Source of the DNA: an uncultured Microthrixaceae bacterium
Lineage (GTDB): Bacteria > Actinomycetota > Acidimicrobiia > Acidimicrobiales > Acidimicrobilacustridaceae
Reading direction: 5' to 3'
DNA length: 64,000 nucleotides
NCBI GenBank assembly: GCA_963726905.1
Contig: CAVSDZ010000016.1
Span: 3,028-67,027, forward strand
Shown here: one piece after another, positions 4,691 to 23,272 of the stretch
How the letters are laid out: every line of letters starts with the position of its first letter
Position numbering within the stretch: position 1 is the first letter of the stretch
The notes under the pieces: model-generated
Told to the model about the DNA's origin: nothing
Databases searched by the model: none
Seen by the model: only the letters and a program-made list of their open reading frames with translations
Translations under genes and position numbers: made by a program

Positions 4691-4715
4691 GGCCTGCACC
4701 CACATGACGAGGTCG

Positions 4716-6521
4716 TCATCCTGCAGGAGCAGGGCGCCCTCGATTTGTCCGGTTTCTTCCAGTAAAGTCAAACGCCCTGGCTTCCGCCGGGCATTCCCCG
4801 GCGGGGAGGTGTCTTCGACGTGGCCGGTCAAGCCTGAGACCTCAAAACGCCGGTAGTAAGGTGACGATATTGTGTCGTCAGTCACAGGAAATGGAATGGT
4901 CCTCGTGAGAGGCTTATCTTTACGATTGCAGTTCAGGGGGAGGAGAGCGTAGGTACCAGAACGGCAGGTGCCGTCTGACATCAGTCAATGGGTGCGACAC
5001 TCTCGGATGGACAGGAGGCAGGCCCTTCGCCGCACGAGTCACGTTCAGACGAGCGCAGTAGGGTTGGAAGAAGTGCTCACTTCAACACAACTCTGTGATT
5101 TGATTGCAGTAGGTGGAAATGGTGCTGCCGACGACCTTGCCGCTGCCACATACATCGGAACTGAAGCGATCGCATTTCACCCAGGGCCAGAGATAAGCCA
5201 ATCTGATGGGACATTCAAATGGCCTGGATGGGCGCAGCTGTTTCAGGTTGATCTGCAGACGCGACCGGTGGTGTGGTCGTGGAAGGTGAAGCTGTCGATG
5301 CTGAAGTGGTCATCGTCTTGGCGGCTGCGCTTGCACGCGAGGAGGTCGAGCGCTATCAGAGCGCCGATGAAAACCTTCTTTCGTGTGCGTCATTCGTCGC
5401 ATGGGCTGACGGGAACCTAAGACCACGATCTCGGGTGGCCGATGGATCCTTCTCTAGATCCCTCGTCGGCGTGTGCTTCGGCGGACTCGGGCTCGGGGAA
5501 CAGCCGCTCGGCGTCTCGACTGGCAAGGGGGAAGGCTGTGGCGGCGGCCACAGCATCCAGCGAGTCTGACCGTCGGCAGCGAAAGCCGGTGACCTTGTCT
5601 TCGGCGTGGCGCCTTGGGCGTGCTGCGGGCGTGGTGGTTTGCGGAATAGCGGGCTTCTGATTGTCGGGACCGGCCTGTCGAGGGATCGGTGCTCTGCGCG
5701 GAGACGCTTGGCGCTGTGGGTTCGATGCGCCGAGGCGGTTTGGGGTGTGGAAGGTGCGGTACGTCGGTGGCGCTGCTTCGCTGTCCGCGGCGACCAGTGG
5801 AGTCTCCCGCTGACTTCTGGAGTCCTGTTCGTTCTTGGTTTGCGGCCAGGGGGCGTGCTCCCATCATCGGGACCTACTGGTGACGCGCCCCTCGAAGGGG
5901 CGCCGTGGAAGGGCTGCAGGTCCATTCTCCGTCGCTGCTCTCGTGCTTCGTTCAAGCCCTCGCAAGCCGTCGAGGTGCTGGGGTGCGGTGGCCCTCTGAT
6001 GCGGATCCCTGGGCTGGAGGGACGCGCTGCTGTCACGCAATCGCGTACCCGCGGCGACGAGTCGGTCGCCCACATCGCCGTCCCAACGAGTTCGGATAAC
6101 TCGAGCCCGGTGATCATGGCGAGGCGCGTGATCGATGGGGGGAGCTGGGACCGGTTGGCAGCACAGGCGTCGCCGACGAGAACCGGAATGGGTGGGAGCC
6201 CACGGGAGATAGCTGTTTCGATCTCTCACGCGACGAAGTCCTCGGGGTCATCTAGTGGGCGCGCTCCACCCGCGTCCGCGACGGCAGCCCAAGAGGGGCC
6301 GATCAGGGCGATGAATGCGTCACACTCGCGAAGCGCGTTGTCGATCACGTCGGGGAAGTACTCCGACACGGATCGAATCGATGTCCATGAAGACCTCTTC
6401 GACACGTTGATCCGCACATAGGGTCTTATACAGCGCCAAGGCGGCACGTGTGGGTGTCCGATCGGCGATAGCTGATGAAGATACGGACACCCTGTCCGCT
6501 GGACGTGCCTTCGGTCGCCAT
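4716..6521 (-). CDS. TIR-domain / single-TM / Cys-rich ectodomain protein, paralog 1 (at least 8 frame jumps; possibly a decayed copy)
   Basis: The N-terminus is MATEGTSSGQGVRIFISYRRSDTHT, then ALALYKTLCADQRVEEVFMDIDSIRV, then SEYFPDVIDNALRECDAFIALIGPSWAAVADAGGARPLDDPEDFV, then EIETAISRGLPPIPVLVGD...LAMITGLELSE. These fragments are in ORFs 6320..7030, 6226..6558, 5356..6117 and 5864..6229. Next come the TM segment KKVFIGALIALDLL, the linker TTTPPVASA, and the ectodomain YLWPWVKCDRFSSDVCGSGKVVGSTISTYCNQ ... AKGLPPV ... SDGTCRSGTYALLPLNCNRKDKPLTRTIPFPV ... PPGEC. The gene is colinear with paralog 2 over its whole length. A 1-nt insertion relative to paralog 2 is directly visible (ACGTGCCGCC versus ACGTCCGCC). 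GC content is visibly lower at 4716-5420. Confidence 0.7.
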
Positions 6522-6645
6522 GCCCCCCATCCCCTCGGCAGACAATTGCGCGCCTCACGCCTCTCGGTGTTCACCGAACAAAGCGGCCTTCGAAATCGGT
6601 GAACATTGCCCCCCAAGGCGACGCCACGTGGGCGCGATGCAAAAA

Positions 6646-6675
6646 ACAGTAGGGCATCAGGAAGGCCTCTGCGAG
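6646..6675 (-). promoter_or_regulatory. Candidate promoter of TIR paralog 1 (-35-like CTCGCAGAGG block, -10 TACTGT)
   Basis: On the minus strand the sequence reads CTCGCAGAGG-14 nt-TACTGT...CGTGGCGTCGCC-96 nt-ATG. The same blocks, with the same 14-nt and 96-nt spacings, occur upstream of TIR paralog 2, where the -10 is TAATAT. Confidence 0.35.
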
Positions 6676-6999
6676 CGGTATCCGTGGGCCACCAGCCACG
6701 AGTCAAGGCGCACGCCTGTGGGGCCGGTACTTGCCAGGGGCACCCGACGAGGCCGTCCTGGTCGGTGATGGCGCCGTCCGGGTGGGTATTGCAGAGTGCG
6801 CATCGCGGACGCCCTCGCCCAGGCGCTGATCGACGCAAGCCTGCGGCGATGGGAGCGGTGCCTTTCCCGCAAGCCGCGAAGGGACGCTCTCGGGAACCTG
6901 CCGCGTCAATGTCGTCCCGCTCGGCACGTGTAAGACTGATGCGCTCCGCCTGCGCCGGCCCCACGGCTGCCGTGGGCGGAACGCGTTGGGGGGTGAAGC

Positions 7000-8758
7000 G
7001 TGGCCACACCGGACGATCCCGGCCGGTCATCGGCGCTCAAGACGACGGTGGCGATCGTCCTTGCCGTCATGGCATTCCTCCTGGGGCTGGTGGGCTACCT
7101 ACGAGCTGGCGGGCTCTCGCTCGCGAGCGCGGTCTACCGAAGTCTGGGACTGTTCACGCTCAGCTTCGATCCGCCACCCAATCAGACGGCCTCGGGCCTC
7201 CCGCTCACGCTGGAGATCGCCCGGTTCCTGGCCCCGGCCGTCACGGTCCTGGCCGCGGCAGCGGTCGCAGCGCGGGTGTTCCGAGACGAGTTCGACCGAC
7301 AGACCACCCGGCGGCGGGTCCGTGGTCATGTGGTGGTGTGCGGTTTGGGGTCGGTCGGCGCCATGGCCGCACAACAGCTGCGGGCTCAAGGTCGCCACGT
7401 CGTGGCGATCGAACGTGACCGGTCCCGACCATCGATCCCGGCCGCCCGATCCGCGGGCATCCCAGTCGTGGTGGGCGACGCCCGTGCAAGACAGACACTC
7501 CGACGAGCAGGTGTCGACCAGGCTGCCCACCTCGTGTGGTCGGCCAGCGACTGGGCCGACGGCCAGGCGGTGGTCGATTCGCTGGTCGACACGCTCAACG
7601 GCCGGTCTGAGAAACGACACGGGGCCCCACGCGGGCCCGGCGTGCCTGCTTGCACGGTACGCGATCTCGCGTTGTCCACCACCTTGCGTCTGCGGGCCCT
7701 GAGTCAGCACCCGGAGGCAACTTGGGGGCCCGATGTGGACTACTTCAACCTGGCCGAGAACACGGCTCAGCGTCTGCTGTGGAAGGTCACCCGGGGGTAC
7801 GCCCTCTTCGACGGCGGCCAGGTGGAGTTGTGGCTACTGGGCTCCGGACCGCTCGTCGAAGCACTGGTCGTCCAGGCCGCCCGAAACTGGTGGGGGGTCC
7901 CGTCCGACCACGCTCGGCCCACGCTGTTGTGGTGCATATCTTCGATGACGGCGCCACGAGTGCACGCGACCACCTCCTCGCCCGATGGCCTGAGGTCGCC
8001 GAGCGCGTGCTGCGTCGAGGCACACGACGGGCCACCTGAAGGAGCCCTCGAGGTCAGTCGGTCGACCGACGCGATCGGCGAGCCGCAGGGAGCCTTCGTG
8101 TTGACGGATGACCCGGAGCGGGCCGTGCACCTTGGTCTCCACCTCGCCGAGGAGACCGCGATTCCCATGTGGTGGTTGGCGTCGAGCCGGCAGCCGCGCC
8201 AAGGCTGGCCGCTCCTGACCTCTTGCTGTTCGACCCGGTCCGCTACGGCTTGGACAGTGACGTCCTGCTGTTCGACACCATGGACCTGCTCGGCCGGATG
8301 ATCCACGAGCGCTACCTCCAGAGCCGACTCTGTTCCGACGGCACGCTGGAAGCCGGAACCGACCCGTCCGATCCCGGCCACGAGTGGAGCGCGCTCGAGC
8401 CGCTGTGGCGTGCCTCCAACCGCGACGCGGCCCGCTTCATCGTCCCCAACCTCCAGGCCTCCGGCTTGCGCATTCGGCGCCTGAGCGGCCTCGACGATCT
8501 CATCGCCTTGGACGGAACCGACGCGATTGGCGACTCTGCGCTGGTCGACATGGCCACACGCGAGCACGAGCGGTGGCACCGGTTCATGACTGACCAGGGT
8601 TGGCGATTTGCTCCCGGCCCCGCGACGACGAGCAACGCACGAACCCCAATCTGCGGCCGTGGTCCGATCTCGGCGCCGACACACGCGGGTACACCGTGGG
8701 GGCGGTCAGCGAGTATCCACGCTTGTTGGCCCAGCTCGGTTACCAGATCTGCCGATGA
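7000..8758 (+). CDS. Channel-like membrane protein: 2TM K+-channel-type core lacking a selectivity filter + TrkA-N (RCK) NAD-binding domain + two RyR domains (at least 4 frame jumps)
   Basis: ORF 7000..8301 contains two TM helices (TTVAIVLAVMAFLLGLVGYL and LEIARFLAPAVTVLAAAAVAA) flanking SAVYRSLGLFTLSFDPPP, which sits at the pore-helix position but has no TVGYG. The TrkA-N signature is GHVVVCGLGSVGAMAAQQLRAQGRHVVAIERD...VVVGDARARQTLRRAGVDQAAHLV. The first RyR-like repeat is in ORF 8169..8912: MIHERYLQSRL...WSALEPLWRASNRDAARFIVPNLQASGLRI. The second is ATREHERWHRFMTDQGWRFAPGP followed, in a third frame, by RDDEQRTNPNLRPWSDLGADTRGYTVGAVSEYPRLLAQLGYQICR*. The stop is TGA at 8756-8758. Confidence 0.65.
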
Positions 8759-8814
8759 CGAATGGGTCCTCACCGAAGGGCAGAATCGCGCTGTGGGTTT
8801 TGTCGGGGGCAAGA

Positions 8815-9727
8815 TCATTCGGTGCTGTGTCGACGGACGCTCCACTGGGCCTGCTCCCGAGACAACGCCATCTCGACCTCATCGACGAAGCCAACCCAAG
8901 CCTCCTCGGTGACGATGTAGCGAAGTCCGATGGTGATTGTCGACAGGATCTGTGCGGTGCCCGCGTAGGAGTCGCCTAGAGACCGGAACTGGTTGCCGTG
9001 CAGCCAGGCGATCGACTGCCGCGTCCAAGGCGGCCGCGATGCAGAGGATGTCGACGTTGAACCCCAGCCCGACCGGTACCCTCAATGCCGCACCCACTAG
9101 ACCAGACGAAGTTCGCGCCCAGGGCCACGAGGCTCCACTGGCCGGCCCTCCGAAGGAGCAGCTTCGACTTTTCCCGGTACCACTCCTGTTGATCGCGGAC
9201 CGCCTCGAGATAGAGGGCTTTGCGCCCCTCGAGCGACCGGGTCCGCCTCGCGGATCGCGCGGGGTGATCTGCTCTCCATTGTCGACCTCGTCCCAGTTCA
9301 AATCATCGAAGCGGTCGATCGCGGCTTCGAGCTGCCCCCGGAACTCCAGGTCCACCTCCGAGGGGGACTTGCTGGAGCTAAATGGGGCCGCGGCCATGCA
9401 TAACGCCAGGCCAGCGCCTTGACCGCCTCGGCTCCGGCTCGTCCCCGGTGCCAGTTGTCCGCTGGCGCCTCCCGGGCGATGCGCCAGGCAAGCACCAGGG
9501 CAAGGCCGAACGCCACGAACGCCACGAACGGCCCGACGCGAAGGTCGCCCACCTCGAGATCGACGACTCCGCCGGCGGCGGCTACGACGAGCAGAGCCAG
9601 CTGCCAGCCCGTCTCATCCCAACGACCGCCTTTGCGACTCGACCGCCGCCGAGTCAGCAGCTCGATAGGCGGCCGGCAGATCCTCCGGGGCGAATCCCGG
9701 TTCGGGTAGGGCTGTGCCGGCTCCCAT
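8815..9727 (-). CDS. SLATT-family 2TM effector protein, double-module, paralog B (at least 3 frame jumps)
   Basis: The ATG at 9727 is preceded by GGAGGTGA. The stitched product reads MGAGTALPEPGFAPEDLPAAYRAADSAAVESQRRSL, then WDETGWQLALLVVAAAGGVVDLEVGDLRVGPFVAFVAFGLALVLAWRIAREAPADNWHRGRAGAEAVKALAWRYA, then MAAAPFSSSKSPSEVDLEFRGQLEAAIDRF, then SLEGRKALYLEAVRDQQEWYREKSKLLLRRAGQWSLVALGANFVW, then GAALRVPVGLGFNVDILCIAAALDAAVDR, then WLHGNQFRSLGDSYAGTAQIL...FVDEVEMALSREQAQWSVRRHSTE*. This gives two 2TM modules plus the DUF4231/SLATT-type Y..Q..WY signature. Confidence 0.6.
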
Positions 9728-9730
9728 CGA

Positions 9731-10655
9731 TCACCTCCGCGAGGTCACCCAGCTGCTCGTGCTCACGAGCGATGAGACGCTCGACCTCATCGACGTACAC
9801 GCTCCAGGCGTGGTCGCTCTGACGGTGCTGGGCAAGTTCGCGTATGAGGCTCAGTTCCCTGGCCAAGTCGGCGTAAACCCGGCTGAGGCTCTCGTGGTGG
9901 CGAACCCCCAACCAGCCGATTGCGGCACCGGCCCCGCCCGCCGCCAGGCTGACGACGACCGCGGAACCCTTGTCGGCCAGTCCATTGTCGACCACTAGGA
10001 AGAGTCCGGCGAGCACAGCCAACCCGGCCAGCACGTAGAACGCCAGGTCCCAGCGTTTGGCGGAGCGGGCGTTACGACCAGCCCGGGTTGCATACCACCC
10101 GAGCTGTTCAGTGACGCGTTCCTGGACATAGCGATCGCGCCGGCGATCCAAGGGCGCGGCATGGAGCGTCCGCATCGCGGCGGTGATCTCCCCCGAGGGG
10201 TCCGGCGCCGGCAGCGACTCGCGCTCTTCCAACAGCTGTGCCAGCCGCTCGACGAACAGCTCGTCGGCCTGCGCCTCGCTCTGGTGCGGCCCGTCGAACG
10301 GCAGGCCCCGAACCGCGTACCGCCACGACAGCGACTTAATCGCCTCCGCCGCCGCGCGACTCGTACCAGACAGCCTCCACGCGACTCAACCGCTGGACAA
10401 CCCGCAGGATTACCAGCAGCGAGCCCGCGGCGACCGCCAGCGCCCCCAGGAAGGCCAACCTCGGGTTGCCCTTGGCCACGGTGCCGACCGCGGCACCGAC
10501 CAACGGGAGCACCGAGCTGGGATCGGATCATGCGCAGGTACGCCGCCGTTGGGCTTGTACCGCCTGGGAGTCGGCAGCTCGACAGATCGCCGGCAGGCCT
10601 GCTCCGCTCAAGGCGCCCTCCCCTCAGCGAGTTGCGGACCCATCGCTGCGCTCAT
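9731..10655 (-). CDS. SLATT-family 2TM effector protein, double-module, paralog A (at least 4 frame jumps; as read, the ORF runs on to 9654)
   Basis: ORF 9654..10232 reads RRRDRYVQERVTEQLGWYATRAGRNARSAKRWDLAFYVLAGLAVLAGLFLVV...SLAAGGAGAAIGWLGVRHHESLSRVYADLA...VYVDEVERLIAREHEQ. The upstream stitched part is MSAAMGPQLAEGRAP, then GLPAICRAADSQAVQAQRR, then VLPLVGAAVGTVAKGNPRLAFLGALAVAAGSLLVILRVVQRLSRVEAVWYESRAAAEAIKSLSWRYAVRGLPF. It is colinear with paralog B. By analogy with paralog B's C-terminus (REQAQWSVRR), the true end is probably REHE.SWVTSRR*, with TGA at 9731-9733, one codon before paralog B's ATG. Confidence 0.6.
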
Positions 10656-10727
10656 CGACGTTCGTCCTCGCTCCCCACCGTCGTCGCCGGATCGTATGCG
10701 CGGAATCCAACCGGCGGCCTCGCTCCG

Positions 10728-10748
10728 CCACGCTCCCAAGTAGCGTGG
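10728..10748. promoter_or_regulatory. 7-bp inverted repeat CCACGCT-n7-AGCGTGG immediately upstream of the SLOG gene start, in the 98-nt SLATT/SLOG divergent control region
   Basis: Read directly from the sequence: ccacgct cccaagt agcgtgg, 5 nt before the ATG at 10754. It is a candidate operator or 5'-UTR hairpin. Confidence 0.3.
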
Positions 10749-10753
10749 CGGGC

Positions 10754-11548
10754 ATGGTCACACTGCCCGCGTCGACGAGCCCGAAGCGGTGGGCGCCGCC
10801 CTCGGCGAGCTGGGTGTCGTCGGGCCCCACGCCGTCGTCGTCGCCTTCGGGAGCGCCGCCGGTCTCACCGACCGACAGGCAGGGACCGTTGCCCGCTCAT
10901 CGAGCGAGCCCTGATACCGCTCTGCGAAGAACTCGGTGCCGCCATCGTGGACGGCGGCACCGACGCAGGGCTCATGCGACTGGTAGGGCGAGCTCGCACG
11001 GCGACGCACGCACAGTTCCCCCTCATCGGCGCTCGTCGGCGGGAACGATCGCGACCGGCAATCCGACGGTCTCGGACCCCGCGCGCCTAGAACCCAACCA
11101 CTCGCACATCGTCATCGTCCCTGGCACGGCCTGGGGGGACGAATCGCCGTGGCTCACCCGTGTTGCCCTCGAGTTGGCGCAAGGCCTTCCCATAGTCGGC
11201 CTGATGATCGGCGGCGGGCCGATCTCCCTGCGCGATGCAGTGAACCTCATCGACGCCACCTGCCCAGTGATCGCCATCGCCGGGACCGGTCGCCTCGCTG
11301 ACCAGCTCGCAACGCAAGGTACGGTCACGGATCCGACGCTCGCCCGACTACACGACTCTCCGCTTCTGCACCTGCTTGCCACCGCCGAACCGGAGCCGCT
11401 CGTCACCGCCCTTCGAGCACACCTGAGCGGCGACCACCAGCTAAATCAGTCCCTGCGCGGGGCTGCGCCACTTATCGAGCTGCTCGACGCCCTCGACCAA
11501 CCGCGCACCTCGAGGCCGCCCTTCATCGAGGCCGGGGACGAGCGCTGA
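10754..11548 (+). CDS. Stand-alone SLOG-superfamily protein, LSDAT (TRPM-type SLOG) prokaryotic-like; predicted nucleotide sensor (3 frame jumps)
   Basis: The stitched product starts MVTLP.., then VDEPEAVGAALGELGVVGPHAVVVAFGSAAGLTDRQ. ORF 10161..11090 contributes LIERALIPLCEELGAAIVDGGTDAGLMRLVGRARTATHAQFPLIG. ORF 10466..11548 contributes TIATGNPTVSDPARLEPNHSHIVIVPGTAWGDESPWLTRVALELAQGLPIVGLMIGGGPISLRDAVNLIDATCPVIAIAGTGRLADQLA. This is a Rossmann-type GGTD.G.M / GGG / G.GR.AD pattern as found in SLOG/LOG-like domains. Confidence 0.6.
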   Translation: MVTLPASTSPKRWAPPSASWVSSGPTPSSSPSGAPPVSPTDRQGPLPAHRASPDTALRRTRCRHRGRRHRRRAHATGRASSHGDARTVPPHRRSSAGTIATGNPTVSDPARLEPNHSHIVIVPGTAWGDESPWLTRVALELAQGLPIVGLMIGGGPISLRDAVNLIDATCPVIAIAGTGRLADQLATQGTVTDPTLARLHDSPLLHLLATAEPEPLVTALRAHLSGDHQLNQSLRGAAPLIELLDALDQPRTSRPPFIEAGDER

Positions 11549-11622
11549 CGGAGGCAGCATCGGCTCGACTGGTAAGTCCTCGACGGATCGAGGCACCAGT
11601 CAGTCAGGTTAGATTCTTGTCG

Positions 11623-13278
11623 TCAAGGCTTCGCGGCGATGTTGAGCCCCTCGACAACCGCCCGGCATTCACCTCGCGGCGTACTGTCTTGGACCTGACC
11701 TTCCAATGTGGAGGCCATGAAGCGCTGGGGCTCGGGTGACCAATTCGCGCCCGATACATGAAAAGTGACTGTCCGAGTGACCGGAAGGGCGCTGCCATTG
11801 CAGGAAACCGCGGTGTGGTGAGGGTAACTCCCGGACGAATTGCCATCGGAATAGCTAAGTGACGCCCAGGCAACCGGCGTGGTAACGGGTGGCAGGCCCT
11901 GTGCCACTCTGGCCCTGTTCACAATCGCCTTCTCTCGATCGAGATCTGGACCGTCGTTTATTGTGCAACCAGCCGGTCCGCACTCGATATCGAAGGTCAC
12001 GGAGGTAGCCTTGCCATTGCCACACACATCAAGACCGAAGCCCTCGCACGTCGCGAAATTACCCTCCCCCGACCAGGTGGACGGGACATCCCACCAGTAG
12101 TAGACGGGCGACAACTTCTTCAAGTCAGATGCCGAGGCAACTGGTGGAGTGGTGGTCACGGAGTCCGTCGCCGCTGAACCCGTCGTGGTTGAGGTTGTCG
12201 CTGCCTGCACGGCCAGGCCCGCTCCGAGTAGTCCGAGGACTGCCACGGCGCCGATGACGACCCTAAGTCGCTTCCCTCTCGGGGCGTCGGTAGACGGGCC
12301 GCTGAGGACGATCTCAGGGCCGTCGCTAGATCGCTCCCCATATCCTGTGCCGGCGTTGACGCTGATCCGCTCGGCAGTATCGGCCTCGCTGACTCTCCGC
12401 AGCCACGACTGATTCCGGCCAAGGCCTTTGGGCGACGGGCCCAGCATCCTGTGAGTCGGTTTCAGACACGCCCTTCCGGCGACCAACGCCAGGGGCGGGG
12501 CTTGGTGCTAGCCCTGTGATGCTGATCGCTGGCGTCTCGACCTCCCTAGGCCCCTCCACATGAGGATCGTGCGGCCGGGTAGTCGTGCCAGGTGCGACAG
12601 CTGCCGTCGGGCTGACCGCAGGGTGGCGGCTCGGATCGGAGCGACCCACGGCCGGCTTGTCTGGTACAGGCAGGGCGACGGAATCAGGTGGCAGTGCTTC
12701 CTCTAACTCATCAGTGATCTCGGTTGGGTTGGAGTAGGGATGCGCGGGTTCGACTTCCGTCGCCGGGTGGAGGGTGGCGGAGCTCTGTTGCTGACTTCGC
12801 AAGCGCGTCACGGCCGCAACTAGCCGGTCGATATCGGTGTCCCAGCGAGTCTCGGAGACCTCGAGGCCGTTGATCATGGCCAAGCGCGAGATGGAAGGGG
12901 GGCTGGGCCCGGTTGGGCACACTGGCGTTGCCAACGAGCACTGGAATGGCTGGCACACCAAGGGACAGAGCCGTCTCGATCTCCAAGCGCACGAAGTCCT
13001 CGGGGTCGTCCAGGCGCCGAGCTCCACGCGTCCGCGACGTCCGTCCACGAGGGACCGATCAACGCGATGAAGGCGTCACACTCACGAAGCGCGCTATCGA
13101 TCGTGTCGGGGAAGTACTCCCCGACACGTATCGAATCGATGTCCATGAACACCTCGTGGACTCGGTGATCTGAGCACAGGGTCTTGTACAACGCCAAGGC
13201 GGACGTGTGGGTATCCGAACGCCGATAGCTGATGAAGATACGGGCGCCCTGACCGCTGGACGTGACTTCGGTCGCCAT
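11623..13278 (-). CDS. TIR-domain / single-TM / Cys-rich ectodomain protein, paralog 2 (3 frame jumps, all in the cytoplasmic half)
   Basis: ORF 12874..13509 gives MATEVTSSGQGARIFISYRRSDTHTSALALYKTLCSDHRVHEVFMDIDSIRVGEYFPDTIDSALRECDAFIALIGPSWTDVADA. ORF 12711..12992 gives RLDDPEDFVRLEIETALSLGVPAIPVLVGNASVPNRAQ. ORF 12326..13048 gives PPSISRLAMINGLEVSETRWDTDIDRLVAAVTRL plus a P/S-rich linker. ORF 11623..12486 gives PRGKRLRVVIGAVAVLGLLGAGLAVQA (TM) and then YYWWDVPSTWSGEGNFATCEGFGLDVCGNGKATSVTFDIECGPAGCTINDG...VSCNGSALPVTRTVTFHV...PRGECRAVVEGLNIAAKP*. The basic residues lie on the N-terminal side of the TM, which places TIR inside and the Cys-rich domain outside. Confidence 0.75.
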
Positions 13279-13400
13279 GCCCCTCCCTCCCCCCTCGGCC
13301 GACCATCGCAGCGCGTCAGCCGCCAACTGGTCCGCCGACAGAGCAGCAGGCGAATCGATGGGCAATGGCCTCGGGCGACGCCACGCAGGCTCGCGTCGAA

Positions 13401-13430
13401 ATATTAGGATGAGATGTAATCCTCTGCGAG
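13401..13430 (-). promoter_or_regulatory. Candidate promoter of TIR paralog 2 (-35-like CTCGCAGAGG block, -10 TAATAT)
   Basis: On the minus strand the sequence reads CTCGCAGAGG-14 nt-TAATAT...CGTGGCGTCGCC-96 nt-ATG(13278). This is the same architecture as upstream of paralog 1, and it is the only AT-rich patch in the 310-nt gap after the WD40-like gene. Confidence 0.35.
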
Positions 13431-13587
13431 TGGGACTCCTGACTCGCCCATGTCTGCTTGAGGCTCGGGCAATTGGGTGCCAACGAATTGAACAGGCGCC
13501 GCCAGTCACGGCCGAGCGGGCCGACGCGTATCTCGGCGCTCGGCCATGATCCCGTTGTTTACGCGAGACCTCGGTTCGCAGTCCACG

Positions 13588-14778
13588 TCATTGAGGACCG
13601 CCCGCCGCCGGTCCCGATCCCGTCCCGATGGAGAACAGTTCGACGATGCCCGGACTGGAGCTGACCGCGAACACGCGAGTTGTCGACCGACATCGAGATC
13701 CTCATGGGCCGGGGCGGGAGCGGCTTGCGGCGAGGGGGCCGCGGGGCCGGACCGCCGCGACGCCGACGGCGGGGCGGTCCGAGGGCCGGGCCTCGTGACC
13801 GGCCGGGGTGCGGAGCGGCCGGCGAGGATCTCCCCGGTGCGCCAGTTGACGACGAACCACCCGCGGCTGATGACGGCGGCATGATCGCCGTGGACGTCGA
13901 GGTGCGACACGGTTCCGGGAAGGGCGATAGTGGGGCCGAGCCGCTCGCCGGTGCGGACATCGAACGACTCGATGAAGCCGCTCCGTCCGATCACGAGGTC
14001 GTGGGCGCCGGAGAACGACACCGCCTGCATCGGATAGCGGGACAACATCTCCGGGATCCCGACCGGTAAGGCGTCGGCGGTGCGCCACATCCTGTTGGTC
14101 GTGGGCCACCGCGGGATCGATCGGGAACCGACGCCACTCATCATCGGGGAAGATGTGGAACCCGCCGTTGACTTTCACGATCCCGTCGGCGGGAATCATG
14201 TTGCGGGTCAGGGACCGATTGTGGCCGGGGACGAAGAAGAAATGAGCGCCGTCGTCGTCGAAGGCGACGTCGGCCGCCATGGCCCCCACCGGCGACGTCC
14301 TCGACAGCTGGGTGAAGCCACGAACGTCCCAGACCGAGACACCACCGGACTTCAGCACGGCGAGATGGCTGCCGGTCGGACTGAGGCACGGTCGGGCGTT
14401 CTGGGCCTGAAGTCCGGGCACGACCCCGTCCACCGCCAGAGCGCACCGAGCCCACTCCCAGCACCACATCGACGCGTTGAGGCCGGTGCCGGTCAGGAAC
14501 CTCCCGTCGCTCGAGAAGGCGAGAGCCCACACGAAGCCGTCCATCCTGAGGTGCGCCAGCATGTCGCCGGTGGCCAGGTCGAACACCTCGACCACGCCTC
14601 GGTCGTTCCCGGTGGCGACGACCCGGGCCTCGGGATCGATGGCCAGGCCACCGACGCCGCCTTCACCGACGGTCCACGTTCGGACCGGTTCGGGACCGGC
14701 TGGGGACTCGTCGAACCGTCGGACGTCGACGACCGGGATAGGGAGGGCGAATGGGGCCGAGGGTGAGTTTGGGCTCAT
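13588..14778 (-). CDS. WD40-like beta-propeller repeat protein (at least 3 frame jumps; 3' end uncertain)
   Basis: The gene starts at the ATG at 14778: MSPNSPSAPFALPIPVVDVRRF...GGLAIDPEARVVATGNDRGVVEVFDLATGDMLAHLRMDGFVWALAFSSDGRFLTGTG...LSPTGSHLAVLKSGGVSVWDV (ORF 13702..15510). It continues as AVSFSGAHDLVIGRSGFIESFDVRTGERLG...HLDVHGDHAAVISRGWFVVNWRTGEIL (ORF 13506..14144). The last blade reads SVDNSRVFAVSSSPGIVELFSIGTG, with stop TGA at 13588-13590. Confidence 0.55.
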
Positions 14779-14829
14779 GGACCAGCATTTGTTAGGCCGG
14801 GCCGAGGCGCTGTCAAGGCCCCCAAGCCG

Positions 14830-14861
14830 TTGCTTCCCTTCGGGAAGCAAGAATTTCTTGC
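14830..14861. promoter_or_regulatory. Two overlapping, mutually exclusive perfect hairpins/palindromes in the divergent WD40 / PIN control region
   Basis: The first is TTGCTTCCC-ttc-GGGAAGCAA (14830-14850). The second is GCAAGAA-t-TTCTTGC (14847-14861). They share GCAA, so only one can form at a time. Alternatively the region may be a composite operator. Confidence 0.35.
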
Positions 14862-15037
14862 GGGTCCCCTTAGCCCCCACTCCCCCACTGCGAACGGTGC
14901 TCACCCTTGCAGCTCGGTTGCAGTCACCCCTCCCCCGTTCCGGGGTCAGACGCGAGCCTCGCACGGTCGAAGCCGTGAGGTAGTCGGGCGGACGCGTCCG
15001 CCAGGCAATCTCCCGACCGGTGGAACCTCTGCGGGTG

Positions 15038-15468
15038 ATGTTGGACTCGAACGCGTTCAACTCGCTCGTGTGGGACGACGAGGCGATCAGGTCGCGGGTC
15101 GAGGCCGCGGTCGCGGCTGTGCTTTGGTGCTGGTGACCACGACCATCCAGATCGACGAGAACGACCGAACCCCCGACAAGGCGAAGCGTCTCGGGATTCA
15201 ACAGATCCCGGTGACGGGAACGCCAGCGCCCTTCGTAATCGATGTCTCTCGACTCGACGCATCGGTCCTCGCGTCTGACGATGAAGCTGCGGTCTACGAA
15301 CAGTTGATAATCGGCAACTCGAAGCACGCCGAGGACGCCGCGATCCTGATCGCGGCGCGGCGTGAGGGCATCCCGCTGGTCACGAAGGAAGCGCGGCTCC
15401 TGAAACAATGCAAGTGCCACGGGGTGGTCGGAATGACTCCCGCGGACCTGCTCGCGCTGATTCCATGA
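15038..15468 (+). CDS. PIN-like nuclease domain protein (putative toxin-like; one frameshift near 15120)
   Basis: The ATG at 15038 opens MLDSNAFNSLVWDDEAIRSRVEAAVAAV. The frame of ORF 14830..15468 then gives LVLVTTTIQIDENDRTPDKAKRLGIQQIPVTG...SKHAEDAAILIAARREGIPLVTKEARLLKQCKCHGVVGMTPADLLALIP. An N-terminal MLD.N plus a C-terminal D/E-A.I.A.A...G..LVT.(D/E) arrangement is typical of PIN domains. No cognate antitoxin is evident. Confidence 0.4.
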
Positions 15469-15469
15469 A

Positions 15470-15736
15470 CTAGCCGACTGGTACGGGTCGCCTATCGAAC
15501 TCGAGGCCACCGGATCCGGACCGGCGGACCCGGATCGCCAGCGCCGGTCCCCTGTCGAGCGGTGAAAGCCACGCCGGGACCGACAGGCCCTCAGGGAACG
15601 CGTCGTCGTGATCGGATGCGACGGTGAGGACCCCGGTCAAATCGCCGTCGCCGTCGGTCGGAGCGAGAACGGCGAAGACCAGGCCCAGGTCTCGCCCGTC
15701 GAGGTGGAGAGTTCCCATTGTCACCTGTTGCCGCAT
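15470..15736 (-). CDS. Hypothetical small protein (88 aa)
   Basis: This is an intact ORF with high GC3, convergent with the PIN-like gene (stops 2 nt apart). It reads MGTLHLDGRDLGLVFAVLAPTDGDGDLTGVLTVASDHDDAFPEGL... and I recognise no family. Confidence 0.3.
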   Translation of the reverse strand: MRQQVTMGTLHLDGRDLGLVFAVLAPTDGDGDLTGVLTVASDHDDAFPEGLSVPAWLSPLDRGPALAIRVRRSGSGGLEFDRRPVPVG

Positions 15737-16142
15737 AGCTACCTATCGACGCGATACTCTCCGCGCCCCATAGGTCGAGCGGTCAGAATCGGTAGGTCGA
15801 GCGACCCGACCGGGGCGAATGAACGGGCCCGATCCCCGGCATCTCCCTCAAGATTCCTGGGGATCGGGCCTCGCTCGGCGCCGGAGGGGACTCTCCGCAG
15901 GGTCCACCCGATCGCGTGGCCAGCATCGCTCGCCGGCGGGTCGTGGGACATGAGGCGATCGGCCCCGATCGGCCTGGGCCGTTCGCCCTGCGCGGGTTGG
16001 CCGGTCATGCGGCGGCCCGGCGTCGTGGTCGTCGTTGTCGGGCGGGTGGTGGCGCTCCAGATGCCATCGGGAACGGGTCGCCGGATTCATCCTCGGAGGT
16101 GCGTCATGACAGGAGTCGACCCGATTCCCCACCCTTGGGGGG

Positions 16143-16514
16143 TTGCGGGACCATCTCGACACCCTCGACATCGGCGTGGACACCTCAACTCCCTCCGGGG
16201 AGTTAATCGCCAACACGATCGCCAACTTCGCCCAGTTGGAGAGACGACTTATCGGACAACGTACAAAGGACGCGCTCGCCGTAAAGGGGGCGCAGGGGGT
16301 GAGGCTCGGCCGTCCGCGCTCCCTCCTTGATGAATCCGCCCGCGACATCGTGGAGCAACGCGGGGGTGGCCGCTCGTTCAAGCGGATTGCCGGCGACCTC
16401 AACGCCCGAGGGATCCCCACCGCGCATGGCGGACGGCAGTGGTGGCCGGGCACCATCCGGAAGGTCCTGACGAGTAGCCCTGACAACAGGAGTGCGGTCC
16501 GAGGCTTGCTCTAG
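16143..16514 (+). pseudogene. Serine recombinase (resolvase/large-serine-recombinase type) remnant lacking the catalytic N-terminus
   Basis: The remnant reads DIGVDTSTPSGELIANTIANFAQLERRLIGQRTKDALAVKGAQGVRLGRPRSL...SFKRIAGDLNARGIPTAHGGRQWWPGTIRKVLTS. That corresponds to the E-helix region of the resolvase domain plus the IA..LN..GI.T..G..W....V..IL motif that opens the recombinase domain. No Y.RVS..Q catalytic segment appears in any frame of 15740-16142, and the ORF stops soon after. Confidence 0.6.
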
Positions 16515-17340
16515 TGCGTCGTCGAATAGCCCGAACTGCCGATCGCATAGACGGGGCACGCGGGCTTGTCGTAGAGATCAACCGAGAAGGACCCTGTTCC
16601 GCCTGGGGGGATTCCGGCTGAACCTTCGGTCGATGAGTTGATCGTGTCGGTCGGGGAGCCATTCGAGAAGCACATCAGAAGGACGGTGGCGCCCGAGTCG
16701 ATCGCCTTTTCGGATGTGTTCGTCACGATCCCGACTGCCTGCGGAGTTCCGTACTGGCCCGGATTCATCTTGACCTCGGAGACCTTGAGATCAATGTTGT
16801 CGAACAGCTGAGTGCCCGAAGCGTCGTCGCCGGTGGCTGTTAGGTCGAATTTCGAGTCAGCCGGGATGGGGCTGGAGAAGTAGACGTAGCCCATCGCCCA
16901 CTCGCCAGGCTGGACTGTCGCGGGTTGTAGACCTTGCGAGCTACCTGAACCGGCGAGGCTCCCGTCGGCTCCGCGAGCTGTCCCCGTGACTTCAAGCCGC
17001 ATGAGAGCCTTGTCGGTGTTGTTGCGTACCACGACAGGCACGGTGCTACTCCCACTGCCCGACGGAGGTCCCTGAAGGACCACGGAGAGCTTGCCGGGAT
17101 CCCCAGCTGGAATGGTCACGGGGGCAGAAAGGTAGATAGTGGACGGATCCTTCGGCGCCGAAGTTGTTCCCGCGGATGTCGGGCTTGACTCCGGGGCTGA
17201 GGTGCTACTCACGCTCGGACCGGTATCTGATCGAACTACTTCGGTCTGGCTCGACGAAAAGTTCGCCCCTAGGAGCGCGCCAACTAGTCCGCCGAAGAGC
17301 AGGGCGACAGCAACCTCGACAAGTGCGACACCCACATCAA
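16511..17340 (-). CDS. Secreted or membrane-anchored hypothetical protein with two Ig-like-looking repeats
   Basis: This is the C-terminal 275 aa of ORF 16511..17689. The anchor is VALVEVAVALLFGGLVGALLG, followed by the S/T-rich linker SVSSTSAPESSPTSAGTTSAP and beta-rich modules (KLSVVLQGPP...VPVVVRNNTDKALMRLEVTG and AVGIVTNTSEKAIDSGATVLLMCF). GTG starts are available near 17328-17340. The upstream part of the ORF is antisense to the next gene. GC content is lower than in the core genes. Confidence 0.45.
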
Positions 17341-17368
17341 GTGGCACGAGCGGGAAGGGTTCGAGGAG

Positions 17369-17923
17369 GTGCTTCAGGCCACCTATTTCCTGGAGGAGAA
17401 CCTGGCCGGCGGCCTCGGCCCGGGTGGCCCCCCGCCCGGGATCCGCGACGTCCAGGGGCTGCTGGCCCGCCGCCGGCCCCACGACCCGCCGGCCAACCGC
17501 CACCGCGACCACCTTCTCACCCTGCGTCAGATGTCGGCCACGCTTCCGATGATGAACTACATCGGCCATGCCTACGCCAACACCTCCGGCGTGTACAAGC
17601 GCCTCGACATCGAAGTTCGCCGCAACCTCCTCACCTACGCCACCCTCCTCTACGCGGACGAGATCGACGAACTGCGCGACACCTGGCACGAGATCGACCT
17701 GGTCGTGCGCCGCCCCGTGCTCGACACGGCCACCCTCCTGGACCAGCTCGAGCGGCTCGACGCTCTCGCCTACAGCATGGGCGTGATCGCCGTCACCACC
17801 CTGGCCCGGCTGAACCCCAAATGGGTGTACGCGAGCCCTGGGCGTCCCACTCGCAACGCCAAGTATCTGCGTGGCGCCCCCTACGACCCCGATGAGGACC
17901 GATGGGGGCTTGACCCCCGTTAG
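17369..17923 (+). CDS. Hypothetical protein adjacent to the tRNA (start uncertain)
   Basis: This ORF has high GC3 and reads ...MSATLPMMNYIGHAYANTSGVYKRLDIEVRRNLLTYATLLYADEIDELRDTWHEIDLVVRRPVLDTATLLDQLERLDALAYSM... I see no integrase, transposase or other family signature. Confidence 0.35.
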   Translation: MLQATYFLEENLAGGLGPGGPPPGIRDVQGLLARRRPHDPPANRHRDHLLTLRQMSATLPMMNYIGHAYANTSGVYKRLDIEVRRNLLTYATLLYADEIDELRDTWHEIDLVVRRPVLDTATLLDQLERLDALAYSMGVIAVTTLARLNPKWVYASPGRPTRNAKYLRGAPYDPDEDRWGLDPR

Positions 17924-17986: not shown

Positions 17987-18063
<77 letters not shown>

Positions 18064-18191: not shown

Positions 18192-21100
18192 CTACGCCGA
18201 GGTCGGCGGGCCCGTCGAGGTCGTGGTCGAGCCACCATTCCGAAGCGCCGTGGCCTGCACCAGCATGTCGCTGGCCTGCTTCACCGCCTGTTGGTAGGCG
18301 TTGAGGTCGCACACCCCGTGGCGCAGCTCGTCTTGAGGTCGTCCTGCGCCTTCTGCAACAGGGCGGAGGCATCGGCGATGAGCTGATCGGCGTTGCTGCT
18401 CGGCTCCCCCGTCGACGGCGTGGTCGAGCCCGGCGTCGTGGTCGTGGTCGACGAGTTGTCCGGCGGTGTGGTCGTGGTCGTAGACCCACCACCCCCTTCG
18501 AAGGTCTCGGCCTTCACCCCCGGGAACAACGCTGTCGAGCGCCTCCTTCAGCGTCGGCTTCATGGCCGACTGCCCGTTCCACACCACGATCACGTCCTTG
18601 AGCGCCGGCACCGGGGTGTTGTTCGACGACACGTACAACGGCCGCACGTACAGGATCGAGTTGTCGATCGGTATCAGCAACAGGTTGCCGAACGCCACCG
18701 TCGAACCGTTCTGGTTCAACAGCGAGATCTGCGCCGAGATCGACGTGTTGGCCTGGATGGCCGAGTTCACCAGCGCCGGCCCGTCGATCTGCAGATCGCT
18801 CGGCATCTCGTACGTTATGAGCTTGCCGTAGTCGTCCCGGTCGCTCTTGGCCACCATGAACGCGGTCAGCTTCTTCTTCGAGTCGTCGTCCGAGGTCGGC
18901 ACGAACGATCTCAACAGGACGAACGACTCCTTCGTGTCCCCCGGTAATTTCATCAACAGGTAGTACGGGTCGATGCGCGACTCCTTGGGCCGGATCACCT
19001 GCCCGTTCAGGTTCGTGCTCGGCGTCGTCGCCGCCCCGCCCGCCGTCACCAACGTGCCCGGGTCCTGCGCCACCGACCAGCCGTTGGTCTGCTCGTAGAA
19101 CGACTGCGCGTCGGTGATGTGGTACCGGCCCCACACGTTGGTCTGCACCCGGAACAGGTCCTCCGGGTAGCGCAGGTGGTCCTGCAGCGTGACCGGCATC
19201 TGGTCGATGGGCGTGAACAGATCGGGGAACGCCCCCTCATAGGCCTGGATGATCGGGTCGCTCGGGATCGATCACGTACATCTGCACCGTGCCGTCGTAG
19301 CTGTCGACCACGACCTTCACCGAGTTGCGCACGTAGTTGAAGTTCTTGCCCAGCCCGCTGTCGGTCGACAACCCCGCGTTGTCGACCCGCTGCGCATTGG
19401 GGTAGTGGTCGCTCGTCGTGTACGCGTCCATCACGTACTTGATCTTCCCGTCGACCACCACCGGGTACGGGTCGTGATCCAACGCCAGGAACGGGGCGAT
19501 GTTGTGCACCCGCTCCTTGATGTCGCGGACGTACAGGATCTTCGAGTCGTTCGTCACGAAGTTCGAGATCAGCGGGTTCAGGTTGCCGAAGCGGATGGCG
19601 AACGCCGCCCGCCGCACCCACGAGCTCATGGCCACGCCGCCCTTGCCGTCATACCGCGTGTTCACCGTCGCCCCCGAGGCGTCCAGGTAGTTCACCTCGT
19701 CACGGGTGCTGCCCACGATGGCGTAGCCCGTCTGCACCTCGCTGAAGTAGATGCCGTTCTGCGTGATGGTCAGGTCGATCGACGGGTCGATCGTCGTCGG
19801 CACGTCCCGCACCAGATAGTTCGGCAGGCCGTTGGCCGTCACCGCGTTGGCCGCCGACAACGCCAGGCCGTAGCCGTGCGTGTAGGCGATGTGCTGACCC
19901 TCCCACGACTGCTGCGGCGCGCCCGCCACGTTCAGGTCACGCGTCGACAGCACCACCTGCGTCGGCGCCGTGGACCCGTCGGCCAACTTGATCGGGTAGC
20001 GGTCCACCGACAGGTTGTTGAACCTCGTGTACGCCAGGTTGGCCTGCGTCCGCTGATAGGTCGGCGTCACCACCTTCGGATCCAGCAGGCGGATGTTGCG
20101 CACCGTCCCCGGGTTCGTCTCGATGGCCGCCTTGGCCTTGGCCGGGTCGGAGTTGTAGTCGAACGGCTGGTTCTCCACCACGTCCAACCCCGTGGCCTGA
20201 CGGGTGGCGTCGATGTTGTGGCTGATGTACGGCGCCTCCTTCGACGACTCCGACGGCAGCACCTGGAAGCGCTGCACGAACGCCGGGTAGGCCGTGCCCG
20301 CCACCAGGGCCACCAGCGCCCACAGCCCCACCGCCATCATGGGCAGCACCCACCCCCGCCGCCAGATGTTGTAGACGAACAACCCGGCCGACAACAGGGC
20401 GATGAAGATCAACAGGTTCAACGCCGGCAACTCGGCGTGCACCGCGGTGTACGTCGCCCCGTTGACCGTGCCCCTCGTCGAGAACGTGAGCTGGTAGCGG
20501 GCCAGCCAGTAGTCGACCGCCTTCACCAGGGCCAGCACCGCCAGCAGCACCGACAGATGGGCCTTGACCTGCGGCGTCACCCGCTGCATCGGGCTCTGCA
20601 GCCGGATGCCGCCGTTGAGGTAGTCGGCCACCAGCGTGATGATCAGGATGATGATCAGCGCGGCGAACAGCCACTGGGTGACGGCCTGGTAGAAGGGCAG
20701 CCGGAACACGTAGAAGCCGACGTCGGTGTTGAACGTGGCGTCGTTCACCCCGAAGCTCTGGGCGTGGGTGAACAGGATCCACTTGTTCCACTCCGACGAC
20801 ACCCCCACCCCGGTGATGAGGCCGAACAGCAGCGACACCGCCGCCCGCACGATCCACGCCCGGCGGTCCACCAGGTCGTGGTAGCGGGCCAGCATGTCGT
20901 CCTCGGGCCCGGCCGGGCGGAACTTGGGCGCGGTGCGATCGGCCACCGTCAGACTGGTGAAGCACATCACGAAGAAGATGAGCGTGAACACCGTGGCCAG
21001 CAGGAGCTTGGCCCCGAGGATGCCGGTCCACACCTGGGTCAGCCCCAGGTTCTGGAACCACAGGTAGTCGGTGTAGAAGAAGGCGATCCCCCGCAGCGAC

Positions 21101-21201: not shown

Positions 21202-21285
21202 GGGCGGTCAGCCTAGGAGACAACCATGGCCCGAACCGCGCGGCCAGGGCCGATTTCGTCGCATCAACCCACCGTCACCGTCTGG

Positions 21286-23230: not shown

Positions 23231-23272
23231 GAGGCGATGGTAGTCACGCCCCCGGCGCAGATCGGTGAGCCT

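Follow-up and report, generated by a model that had tools for sequence, protein, structure and literature searches.

TIR NADases are active only when their TIR domains self-associate, as has been established for SARM1, plant TNLs, bacterial TIR-STING and the Thoeris protein ThsB. To our knowledge, every bacterial TIR immune protein examined to date detects its trigger intracellularly, and the known ThsB proteins are cytoplasmic. PknB-type receptor kinases and single-pass anti-sigma factors consist of an N-terminal cytoplasmic domain, a disordered juxtamembrane linker, one transmembrane (TM) helix and an extracytoplasmic sensor. In Thoeris systems, the TIR proteins produce ADPR-derived signals, SLOG is the ligand sensor of type I, and the combination of a TIR protein with a SLATT effector is a validated configuration, type VII (10.64898/2025.12.03.692087). 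In this study, we have analysed a window of 64,000 nucleotides (the whole stretch of DNA presented here) from an Acidimicrobiales MAG that contains two related TIR genes, copy 1 and copy 2 (Table 1). The best explanation overall, which we hold with about even confidence, is that copy 2 encodes a type-II single-pass TIR protein with an outer domain, that copy 1 is a decayed relative of it, and that both lie on a mobile island.

TLR and IL-1R have one TM helix, a cytoplasmic TIR domain and a folded outer domain, as predicted for copy 2. The initial annotation had proposed a Toll-like-receptor-type topology, and this holds for the side of the membrane on which each domain is predicted to lie. It does not hold for the domain order, which runs the other way round (the TIR is at the C terminus of the type I proteins TLR and IL-1R and at the N terminus of copy 2, predicted to be type II), nor for the outer domain, in which Pfam and NCBIfam gave no LRR or Ig. 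Furthermore, the TIR of copy 2 is of the enzymatic SARM1 type, whereas those of TLR and IL-1R are of the adaptor type, and there is no evidence for common descent of the two architectures. The layout of PknB-type kinases and anti-sigma factors matches that of copy 2, with the key distinction that the output of copy 2 is a TIR, as opposed to a kinase or sigma-binding domain, and that its outer domain matches neither PASTA nor any other known sensor. SARM1-type TIR domains and the prokaryotic TIR_2 proteins that gave rise to them resemble copy 2 in the FISYRR start and in DFVRLEIETAL with its aligned catalytic Glu; SARM1, however, is a soluble ARM-SAM-TIR octamer, whereas in copy 2 the N-terminal TIR is connected by a long linker to a TM helix, beyond which lies the outer domain. 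Finally, bacterial TIR-linker-single-TM proteins (from metagenomic Actinomycetota, Chloroflexota and others) have the same N-terminal TIR, linker, basic patch and positive-inside TM helix as copy 2, but most of the homologs listed carry a short acidic tail where copy 2 has a 168-aa six-Cys domain after the TM helix. A literature search for studies of this TIR-linker-TM class found none.

Table 1. Features of the TIR locus and its surroundings (positions in the window)
Feature	Position	Strand	Basis or remark
Copy 1, decayed paralog (pseudogene), domain order as in copy 2	4716..6521	(-)	Frameshift-aware comparison
SLATT_1 gene, 2-TM effector-type domain	9654..10232	(-)	Pfam PF18181 E=5.7e-24; NCBIfam SLATT_1 E=4e-23
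SLOG gene (LSDAT_prok)	10830..11548	(+)	Pfam PF18171; convergent with copy 2
Copy 2, TIR-linker-TM-Cys-rich domain gene	11623..13278	(-)	Three-frame translation, frameshift-aware alignment
Orphan C-terminal domain, 168 aa, 6 Cys, predicted extracytoplasmic	11626..12129	(-)	Pfam/NCBIfam/PDB without match
Thr/Ser-rich stalk including TTTPPVASA (identical in copy 1)	12130..12204	(-)	Translation
Single transmembrane helix VVIGAVAVLGLLGAGLAVQ	12205..12261	(-)	Mean KD hydrophobicity 2.25
PRGKRLR, basic stretch preceding the copy 2 TM helix	12262-12282	(-)	
Pro/Ser/Ala/Thr-rich linker, ~170 aa, probably disordered, predicted cytoplasmic	12283..12799	(-)	Translation; no Pfam match
Copy 2 frame break 3, in linker	~12397, anywhere in 12330-12507	(-)	One extra base; position approximate
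TIR domain (TIR_2, SARM1-like)	12800..13242	(-)	Pfam PF13676; split here by single extra bases at ~13026 and ~12902
Copy 2 frame break 2	~12902	(-)	One extra base in or adjoining a C6 run; without it NRAQPPSISRLAM is restored
GAG codon, putative catalytic Glu (RLE|IETA)	12981..12983	(-)	phmmer alignment to SARM1 chains
Copy 2 frame break 1	13026	(-)	One extra base, GACGCG[T]GGAGC; without it VADAGARRLDDPEDF is restored
Purine-rich Shine-Dalgarno-like stretch GGGAGGGAGGGG	13281..13292	(-)	Directly upstream of the copy 2 ATG
tRNA-Met, core-genome side of the low-GC3 island	17987..18063	(-)	ARAGORN and Rfam

Neither copy is a continuous ORF, and the proteins quoted by the initial annotation exist only as corrected conceptual translations. 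Copy 2 is spread across three frames; frameshift-aware alignment gave three '/1' events, each equal to one extra base, with no in-frame stop, and once three +1 corrections are made the gene has ~550 codons, from an ATG at 13278-13276 to a stop at 11625-11623. Its Shine-Dalgarno-like stretch falls within a segment conserved with copy 1 (the blastn alignment starts ~40 nt upstream of the ATG). The C-terminal 274 aa have been deposited as a separate protein, P0001, for which an exact-protein look-up returned no contig and whose cluster has one member. In three-frame translations, both copies follow on the minus strand the order that had been described for them, namely a TIR, a P/S/A-rich linker, a basic stretch with one helix, an S/T stalk with TTTPPVASA and a Cys region.

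The breaks in copy 2 are uninformative about copy 2 itself, because the core genes of the same window are broken at equal density and in the same manner. Compared with an intact relative (79-91% protein identity over the five genes), ECH, HEAT, PDZ/LonC, DivIVA and UPF0182 contain 13 frame breaks in 7.4 kb (1.76 per kb) and no in-frame stop in 2466 codons, and the UPF0182 breaks were seen again against three further homologs. With 3 breaks in 1.66 kb (1.8 per kb, all +1, no stops), copy 2 is indistinguishable from these genes and does not exceed the background of the record in breaks or in stops. Homopolymer errors were considered as the cause and rejected, as most of the core-gene insertions lie outside homopolymers. 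Single-base insertion errors of a noisy metagenome assembly are the most likely cause of the breaks in copy 2; because conserved core genes are broken likewise where their relatives are intact, the contig is taken to be indel-noisy, and the organism itself probably carries an intact copy 2. Scans for an independent copy gave one unrelated TIR in genome contigs, none by protein pattern in metagenomes, and 10 loci by metagenome 20-mers, 6/10 of them encoding TIRs merely 36-40% identical; since no independent assembly of copy 2 was found, its breaks are not provable as errors. There is a practical warning in this for users of the record: with ~1.8 frame-breaking insertions per kb in the window, core genes included, the gene calls, 'pseudogenes' and orphan ORFs of this contig are not reliable at face value. 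As a separate observation, the density of 1.8 breaks per kb in copy 2 is equally compatible with a very recent pseudogene.

Copy 1 stands clearly above this background. It needs ~16 frame corrections of both signs in 1.8 kb and carries two in-frame stops, at 6226 (FVA*EIETA, one codon ahead of the catalytic Glu) and at 5390, with at least 7 frame switches required merely to avoid stops, as against 1.76 breaks per kb and no stops in the core genes: it is a real pseudogene and an older paralog. The view of the two copies as diverged paralogs therefore has to be amended, in that they are true paralogs (83% protein identity in the TIR; in the ectodomain, three collinear HSPs with a joint E=3.5e-11 by tblastn within the window and an identity of ~37% overall) of which one is probably a live gene and the other a pseudogene. 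Several details first worked out by hand were reproduced: blastn gave exactly the 9 substitutions and one 1-nt indel in the first 100 nt, the Cys spacing is conserved (6/6 copy 2 Cys align with Cys in copy 1), and the GC content of the copy 1 ectodomain is lower (0.556 at 4751-5250 vs ~0.68 in the flanks). Nucleotide identity between the copies is 74-85% across the TIR module only (13311-12820) and then falls sharply to <=60%, with dS values of 0.63 for the TIR region and ~1.5 (saturated) for the ectodomain. With such an abrupt fall past the TIR module and such saturation, the argument for an arms race at the ectodomain is weak and remains speculation; dN/dS was judged uninformative as a test of it, given the pseudogene status of copy 1, the saturation of dS in the ectodomain and the bias that frameshift-aware alignment introduces into dN. 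The pattern of divergence resembles what gene conversion or the shuffling of modules, combined with pseudogene decay, would leave, rather than measured positive selection.

The TIR call itself was borne out by Pfam, where frame-corrected copy 2 matched TIR_2 (PF13676) with 46.6 bits vs a cutoff of 28 (E=5.8e-12, profile positions 1-121/122). We found 632 TIR homologs at E<1e-10, the best ones 45-50% identical, and among PDB sequences the closest solved relative is SARM1 (phmmer E=1e-8). The catalytic Glu also aligns as anticipated (query dfvrlEietals vs SARM1 dwvhkEivtals, phmmer E=1.1e-8), its partner being E642, the catalytic Glu of SARM1. We lean towards the view that the TIR of copy 2 would be a catalytically competent NADase.

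The topology was read from hydrophobicity and charge rules alone. As had been noted, there is no signal peptide (the N terminus has no hydrophobic segment) and the basic residues lie on the N side of the TM helix (4 K/R before it, 0 after it); the sole segment with KD >1.5 is VVIGAVAVLGLLGAGLAVQ (aa 337-363). A TIR inside and a Cys-rich domain outside agree with the positive-inside rule in copy 2 and in 22/27 TM-bearing homologs, and the flanks of the 27 together hold 88 K/R before the helix vs 40 after it (D/E: 22 vs 51). An N-in/C-out single-pass (type II) topology is the best reading of this charge distribution, and we think it likely that copy 2 is a TIR-in/C-out membrane protein. The TIR-linker-TM layout occurs in 27/120 of the nearest TIR homologs and is thus not rare in the TIR subfamily of copy 2; on long contigs, the TIR-TM homologs have housekeeping-gene surroundings and no SLOG/SLATT partner.

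This layout is already common; the six-Cys outer domain appears to have no homolog outside the window. The ectodomain, which had not been recognised on first reading, found nothing real in Pfam (no match), in NCBIfam (one far-below-cutoff match, 16 bits vs 1566, located in the TM/stalk segment), in PDB sequences (best match E=1.9) or with phmmer run exhaustively against 1.84 billion representative proteins (the self-match and two spurious repeat proteins), and a word-indexed protein search returned the self-match only. The two repeat proteins were rejected as homologs, their scores being summed from many weak repeat matches. AlphaFold2 modelling of the outer domain alone gave a pLDDT of 39.5 and no reliable fold, a quality at which fold matches would carry no meaning, and an alignment pieced together from copy 1 fragments was not good enough to warrant a second model. 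Nevertheless, the paralog match and the retention of every Cys at so low an identity indicate a real protein domain, which is probably extracytoplasmic and disulfide-bonded. Having neither a homolog nor a confident fold, the domain offers no pointer to ligand binding; that it serves as a sensor gating the TIR enzyme is speculation, possible if rather doubtful.

Both TIR copies lie on a low-GC3 island (~4400-17900, delimited by GC3 contrast) next to the tRNA-Met, which is a mobile island of the Acidimicrobiales MAG with a SLOG/SLATT pair and a fragmented serine-recombinase remnant; relatives have different cargo at the tRNA-Met site. An att-type repeat of the tRNA region was sought at the opposite end of the island and not found, and the tRNA was the only match in a plasmid search. 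The TIR, SLOG and SLATT_1 genes are all within 4 kb. SLOG, which is split over two frames (PF18171 positions 23-68 in one and 73-188 in another), is convergent with copy 2, and SLATT lies beyond SLOG, so the arrangement is not an operon.

Other readings of the locus have to be weighed. Both copies could be dead remnants on a decaying mobile island, with copy 2 a recent pseudogene and nothing functional left: the record shows three breaks in copy 2, the decay of copy 1 is plain, the adjoining SLOG gene and the serine recombinase are fragmented too, GC3 is low throughout the island, and protein, genome-contig and metagenome searches found no ortholog to show conservation. We regard this as unlikely, given that breaks of the same density and type occur in the conserved core genes of the window, that the ~550 codons of copy 2 are free of in-frame stops and that dN/dS is 0.16 between the TIR halves of both copies. 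In a further reading, undetected compensating insertions in the ORF 11623-12486 would scramble part of the sequence, making the 'ectodomain' partly an artefact, hence without homologs or fold. A rate of 1.76 breaks per kb predicts ~0.9 errors over 504 nt, and compensating pairs are known in the HEAT gene (24951 + 24985) and in UPF0182 (18533 + 18315). However, the similarity to copy 1 is collinear along the whole domain, all Cys included, and the exhaustive search would still catch unscrambled stretches, which makes such an artefact highly improbable.

The TM helix could also be merely a tether that holds the TIR inactive or localised, with a structural C-terminal domain (e.g. for cell-wall binding) and activation in the cytoplasm or by proteolytic release. 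Because many TIR-linker-TM homologs end in only a short acidic tail past the TM helix (7-70 aa, lengths that are unreliable, as the homologs listed are proteins of up to ~1.75 times the query length and many are on short or noisy contigs), this family does not require a folded outer domain. Moreover, a membrane helix has been proposed to restrain a bacterial-derived TIR NADase in Dictyostelium TirC (PMC13142454). Against a simple tether stands the 168-aa region with six conserved Cys, kept in both copies, which suggests past selection, and we do not expect this reading to be correct. In another reading, the TIR protein would generate the signal of a Thoeris-like module, in which SLOG reads the ADPR-derived product and SLATT_1 executes the response. 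Thoeris combines TIR with SLOG or SLATT and uses ADPR-derived signals, and here the TIR, SLOG and SLATT_1 genes are close together: SLATT_1 (9654-10232) and SLOG (~10830-11548) directly adjoin copy 2, TIR + SLATT is known as type VII and SLOG as the type I sensor (10.64898/2025.12.03.692087), and the TIR has weak ThsB1 and ThcB4 matches. However, these matches are partial over the TIR (PADLOC ThsB1, profile positions 140-203/396) and the NCBIfam ThcB4 score is far under its cutoff (53.5 bits vs 220), which leaves copy 2 outside ThsB; PADLOC system assignment gave partial TIR matches only and none for SLOG or SLATT. In addition, the genes are convergent or divergent, never co-directional as in an operon, the TIR-TM homologs elsewhere are without such neighbours, and the TIR is predicted to be membrane-anchored here, unlike the cytoplasmic ThsB. 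A Thoeris-like module of this kind seems to us very unlikely.

Returning to the type-II protein that we prefer, copy 2 would be a ~550-aa protein with a cytoplasmic SARM1-like TIR whose catalytic Glu is intact, a long disordered linker, a TM helix, a Thr/Ser stalk and an outer 168-aa six-Cys domain. The TM helix and the outer domain would set its oligomeric state, and a change outside the cell (ligand binding or envelope damage) could cluster the protein, whereupon the cytoplasmic TIRs would assemble and cleave NAD+. This could deplete NAD+ or give rise to an ADPR-derived signal, which the adjoining SLOG/SLATT proteins may read. The layout of a membrane-tethered TIR enzyme with an outer domain is plausible. 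A working outside-in TIR receptor, in which a new-fold disulfide-bonded domain would respond to an event at the cell surface (phage adsorption, damage to the envelope or a signal from a neighbour) and activate a SARM1-type NADase, possibly feeding SLOG/SLATT, is a bolder proposal that we consider distinctly unlikely. If true, it would give bacteria their own counterpart to receptor-coupled TIR signalling, it would be the first Thoeris-like system whose sensor is external, and it would mean that bacteria couple surface events to NAD+-based signalling, as TLR and IL-1R couple outside cues to TIR. The wider point, that about a fifth of the nearest TIR homologs are TIR-linker-TM proteins, may be more useful than the single locus.

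Once frame errors are corrected, the sequence of the gene that we call copy 2 is best read as encoding a SARM1-like TIR enzyme that is anchored in the membrane and carries an orphan outer domain; copy 1 is its decayed paralog. All the motifs described in the initial annotation were seen on the minus strand of both copies in three-frame translation. Its count for the first 100 nt, nine substitutions plus a 1-nt indel, is exact; the frame corrections needed had, however, been understated.

Features of the island and of the equivalent loci in relatives
Feature	Coordinates	Strand	Remarks
Small zf-UBP zinc-finger protein	3505-4038	-	GC3 0.88; core-genome side of island, opposite tRNA
Copy 1	6521 to about 4716	-	N-terminus MATEGTSSGQGVRIFISYRRSD; catalytic region FVA*EIETA; basic stretch and helix RKKVFIGALIALDLL; stalk TTTPPVASA; Cys-rich domain KCDRFSSDVCGSGK, LNCNRKDKPLTRTIPFPV, PAGEC
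TrkA_N (NAD-binding) membrane protein	7000-8301		Probably runs on by frameshift into ORF 8169-8912 (no family match)
SLATT_1	9654-10232	-	Apparently intact
SLOG, LSDAT_prok (prokaryotic TRPM-type)	~10830-11548	+	Split, two frames
Copy 2	13278 to 11623	-	N-terminus MATEVTSSGQGARIFISYRRSD; catalytic region DDPEDFVRLEIETAL; basic stretch and helix PRGKRLR-VVIGAVAVLGLLGAGLAVQ; T/S stalk including TTTPPVASA; Cys-rich domain 168 aa, C-terminal end PRGECRAVVEGLNIAAKP*
WD40 beta-propeller protein	13702-15510	-	Directly upstream of copy 2, same strand
Large serine recombinase remnant	16110-16511	+	Only end of Resolvase and start of Recombinase domain
FxLYD-domain protein, 392 aa	16511-17689	-	FxLYD C-terminal
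tRNA-Met	17987-18063		End of low-GC3 stretch
Core genes with frame-breaking small insertions	18195-26113		Including 19263, 18533, 18315, 21505, 22600, 24050, 24294, 24343, 25819, 25827
Cargo of relative's locus L002	13060-18998		p450/ADC/acyl-CoA dehydrogenase (ACAD)/TPP-enzyme block
Cargo of relative's locus L003	13167-17075		Tyrosine-integrase element

The window contig is an indel-noisy assembly in which every ORF call is suspect, because no living cell would have five conserved genes disrupted at once. The source organism is an Acidimicrobiales MAG, and proteins from such MAGs share 91-92% identity with its UPF0182. In a close relative (GCA_036823295.1, locus L002), the ECH, HEAT-repeat, PDZ/Lon_C, DivIVA and UPF0182 genes are intact and in the same order; tblastn with these proteins found four of the five split across two frames in the window, and DNA alignment placed single-base insertions at 25827, 25819, 24050, 21505 and 19263, mostly outside homopolymers. 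Frameshift-aware alignment of the five genes gave 13 breaks in 7.4 kb (1.76 per kb), no in-frame stops and, after correction, 79-91% protein identity to L002. The three breaks in UPF0182 fell in the same places against three further intact homologs (65-83% identical). In a polyphosphate kinase ORF (42292-44517, minus strand), the last PPK domain is matched only at positions 1-98 of 172, and another frame break probably lies near its 3' end.

Against this background, the two copies differ. The ORF list and translations show copy 2 in three frames rather than one ORF, and frameshift-aware protein-to-DNA alignment located exactly three breaks (~13026, ~12902 and ~12397), each one extra base, with no in-frame stop over ~550 codons. 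Taking one base out at ~13026 and ~12902 gives VADAGARRLDDPEDF and NRAQPPSISRLAM, in agreement with copy 1. Since three breaks in 1.66 kb, all +1, match the core genes in density and type, copy 2 is probably intact in the organism and hidden by assembly errors. These breaks are present in the public record itself, as a deposited protein (P0001, 274 aa, 100% identical) begins just past the third. Copy 1, on the other hand, is a real pseudogene. It has ~16 breaks, eight of each sign, several-fold above the core-gene background, and two in-frame stop codons, at 5390 and, one codon ahead of the catalytic Glu, at 6226; dodging stops takes at least seven frame switches, versus two in copy 2. Its GC3 phase signal is lost and, as had been noticed, its ectodomain DNA is low in GC, with the lowest value (0.556) at 4751-5250.

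After correction, the N-terminus of copy 2 aligns with Pfam TIR_2 over the length of the profile (E=5.8e-12; 46.6 bits, cutoff 28). At E<1e-10 it has 632 homologs, of which the best share 45-50% identity with it, and every one of its closest relatives of known structure is a SARM1 TIR chain (E=1e-8). Copy 2 DFVRLEIETALS aligns over SARM1 DWVHKEIVTALS, and the Glu of RLE (codon 12983-12981) falls on the SARM1 Glu that we take to be catalytic E642; the initial TIR assignment thus holds in both the HMM match and the catalytic position. In other homologs the same TIR is fused to an FGE-sulfatase-like C-terminal region, to Sel1-type repeats (both by eye) or to multi-TM regions, and it is a promiscuous N-terminal module.

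Copy 2 has a single hydrophobic segment (mean KD 2.25), whose 15 preceding residues include four K/R, against none on its C side, and hydrophobicity revealed no N-terminal signal-like segment. A strong hydrophobic helix follows TIR and linker in 27 of the 120 best homologs, drawn from proteins up to ~1.75x the query length (longer relatives with large outer domains fall outside this range). In the flanks of these 27, K/R number 88 N-terminally and 40 C-terminally of the helix, and D/E 22 and 51, respectively; N-in orientation fits 22 of the 27. Because of this charge bias, TIR-in/C-out is the best reading for copy 2, and TIR-linker-TM is a common, unstudied layout among homologs rather than a one-off. 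The Toll-like topology first proposed survives in orientation but not in domain order, which is type II, as in PknB-type receptor kinases, whereas TLRs are type I. We found no description of a TIR-TM-ectodomain layout in the literature searched. On L005 (ERZ25039588 contig_37607) and L006, contigs with TIR-TM homologs, PHO4 is split (127 + 266 aa), as is an amino-acid permease (140 + 193 aa), and some "short-tailed" homologs may have been shortened by assembly errors.

The outer domain is probably a real domain, given its conservation in copy 1, six conserved Cys and a 287-codon open frame. With the TM-plus-ectodomain part of copy 2, tblastn found three collinear HSPs in copy 1 (joint E=3.5e-11), a similarity beyond chance, and all six Cys align with Cys in copy 1; the two genes are thus paralogs as proposed, one of them decayed. 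With an even number of Cys past the TM helix, the domain may be oxidised and extracytoplasmic. The ectodomain, unrecognised at the outset, has no match in Pfam, NCBIfam or PDB sequences; a word-indexed search of 5.8 billion proteins returned only itself, and the genome and metagenome contigs scanned held no close relative. Exhaustive phmmer against 1.84 billion representatives returned itself and two long repeat proteins, rejected as homologs since their scores are summed from many weak repeats. An AlphaFold2 model built without an alignment reached pLDDT 39.5 and gave no reliable fold.

Nucleotide identity between the copies is 74-85% across 13311-12820, a segment that runs from ~40 nt before the ATG to the TIR end, and drops abruptly to at most 60% beyond. 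By Nei-Gojobori, the TIR region has dS 0.63, dN 0.10 and dN/dS 0.16; in the ectodomain dS is saturated at about 1.5 (dN 0.6), making dN/dS uninformative. The sharp boundary and differing dS suggest that the TIR module has a more recent shared ancestor than the rest, via gene conversion or module exchange. The arms race once suggested finds no footing here, because copy 1 is a pseudogene and the alignment had to be fitted across frames, so that these values are no test of positive selection.

A low-GC3 stretch (~4400-17900), flanked by core genes whose GC3 is at least 0.9, contains both copies. The tRNA-Met, just downstream of UPF0182, marks a variable hotspot whose cargo differs between the window, L002 and L003; in L002 a second UPF0182 3' end (76%-identical) and tRNA follow the block. 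The recombinase fragment and FxLYD neighbour suggest a present or former mobile element; no att-like copy of the tRNA region turned up in the window. WD40 repeats also occur fused to some TIR homologs (P0074, for example).

Between the copies, SLATT_1 and SLOG stand head-to-head and may form a nucleotide-signal effector and sensor pair; PADLOC matched neither. A functional link with the copy 2 TIR is conceivable, because TIR plus SLATT makes up the validated type VII Thoeris, and in type I the signal is sensed by SLOG (preprint 10.64898/2025.12.03.692087). Copy 2 may therefore have a Thoeris-like partnership with its neighbours, but the three genes are not co-directional, ThsB-type matches to its TIR are partial and sub-threshold (PADLOC, NCBIfam), and TIR-TM homologs found on long contigs lack such partners, sitting amid housekeeping genes. 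Alternatively, the TM and outer domain may be a pure tether, or the island may be dead. For Dictyostelium TirC, a bacterial-derived TIR, restraint by a membrane tether has been discussed (PMC13142454). For copy 2 as a membrane-anchored TIR enzyme, a receptor mechanism with the outer domain as putative sensor is plausible, since induced proximity activates TIR enzymes. That copy 2 is a true outside-in TIR receptor we consider unlikely; if true, it would be of high interest.
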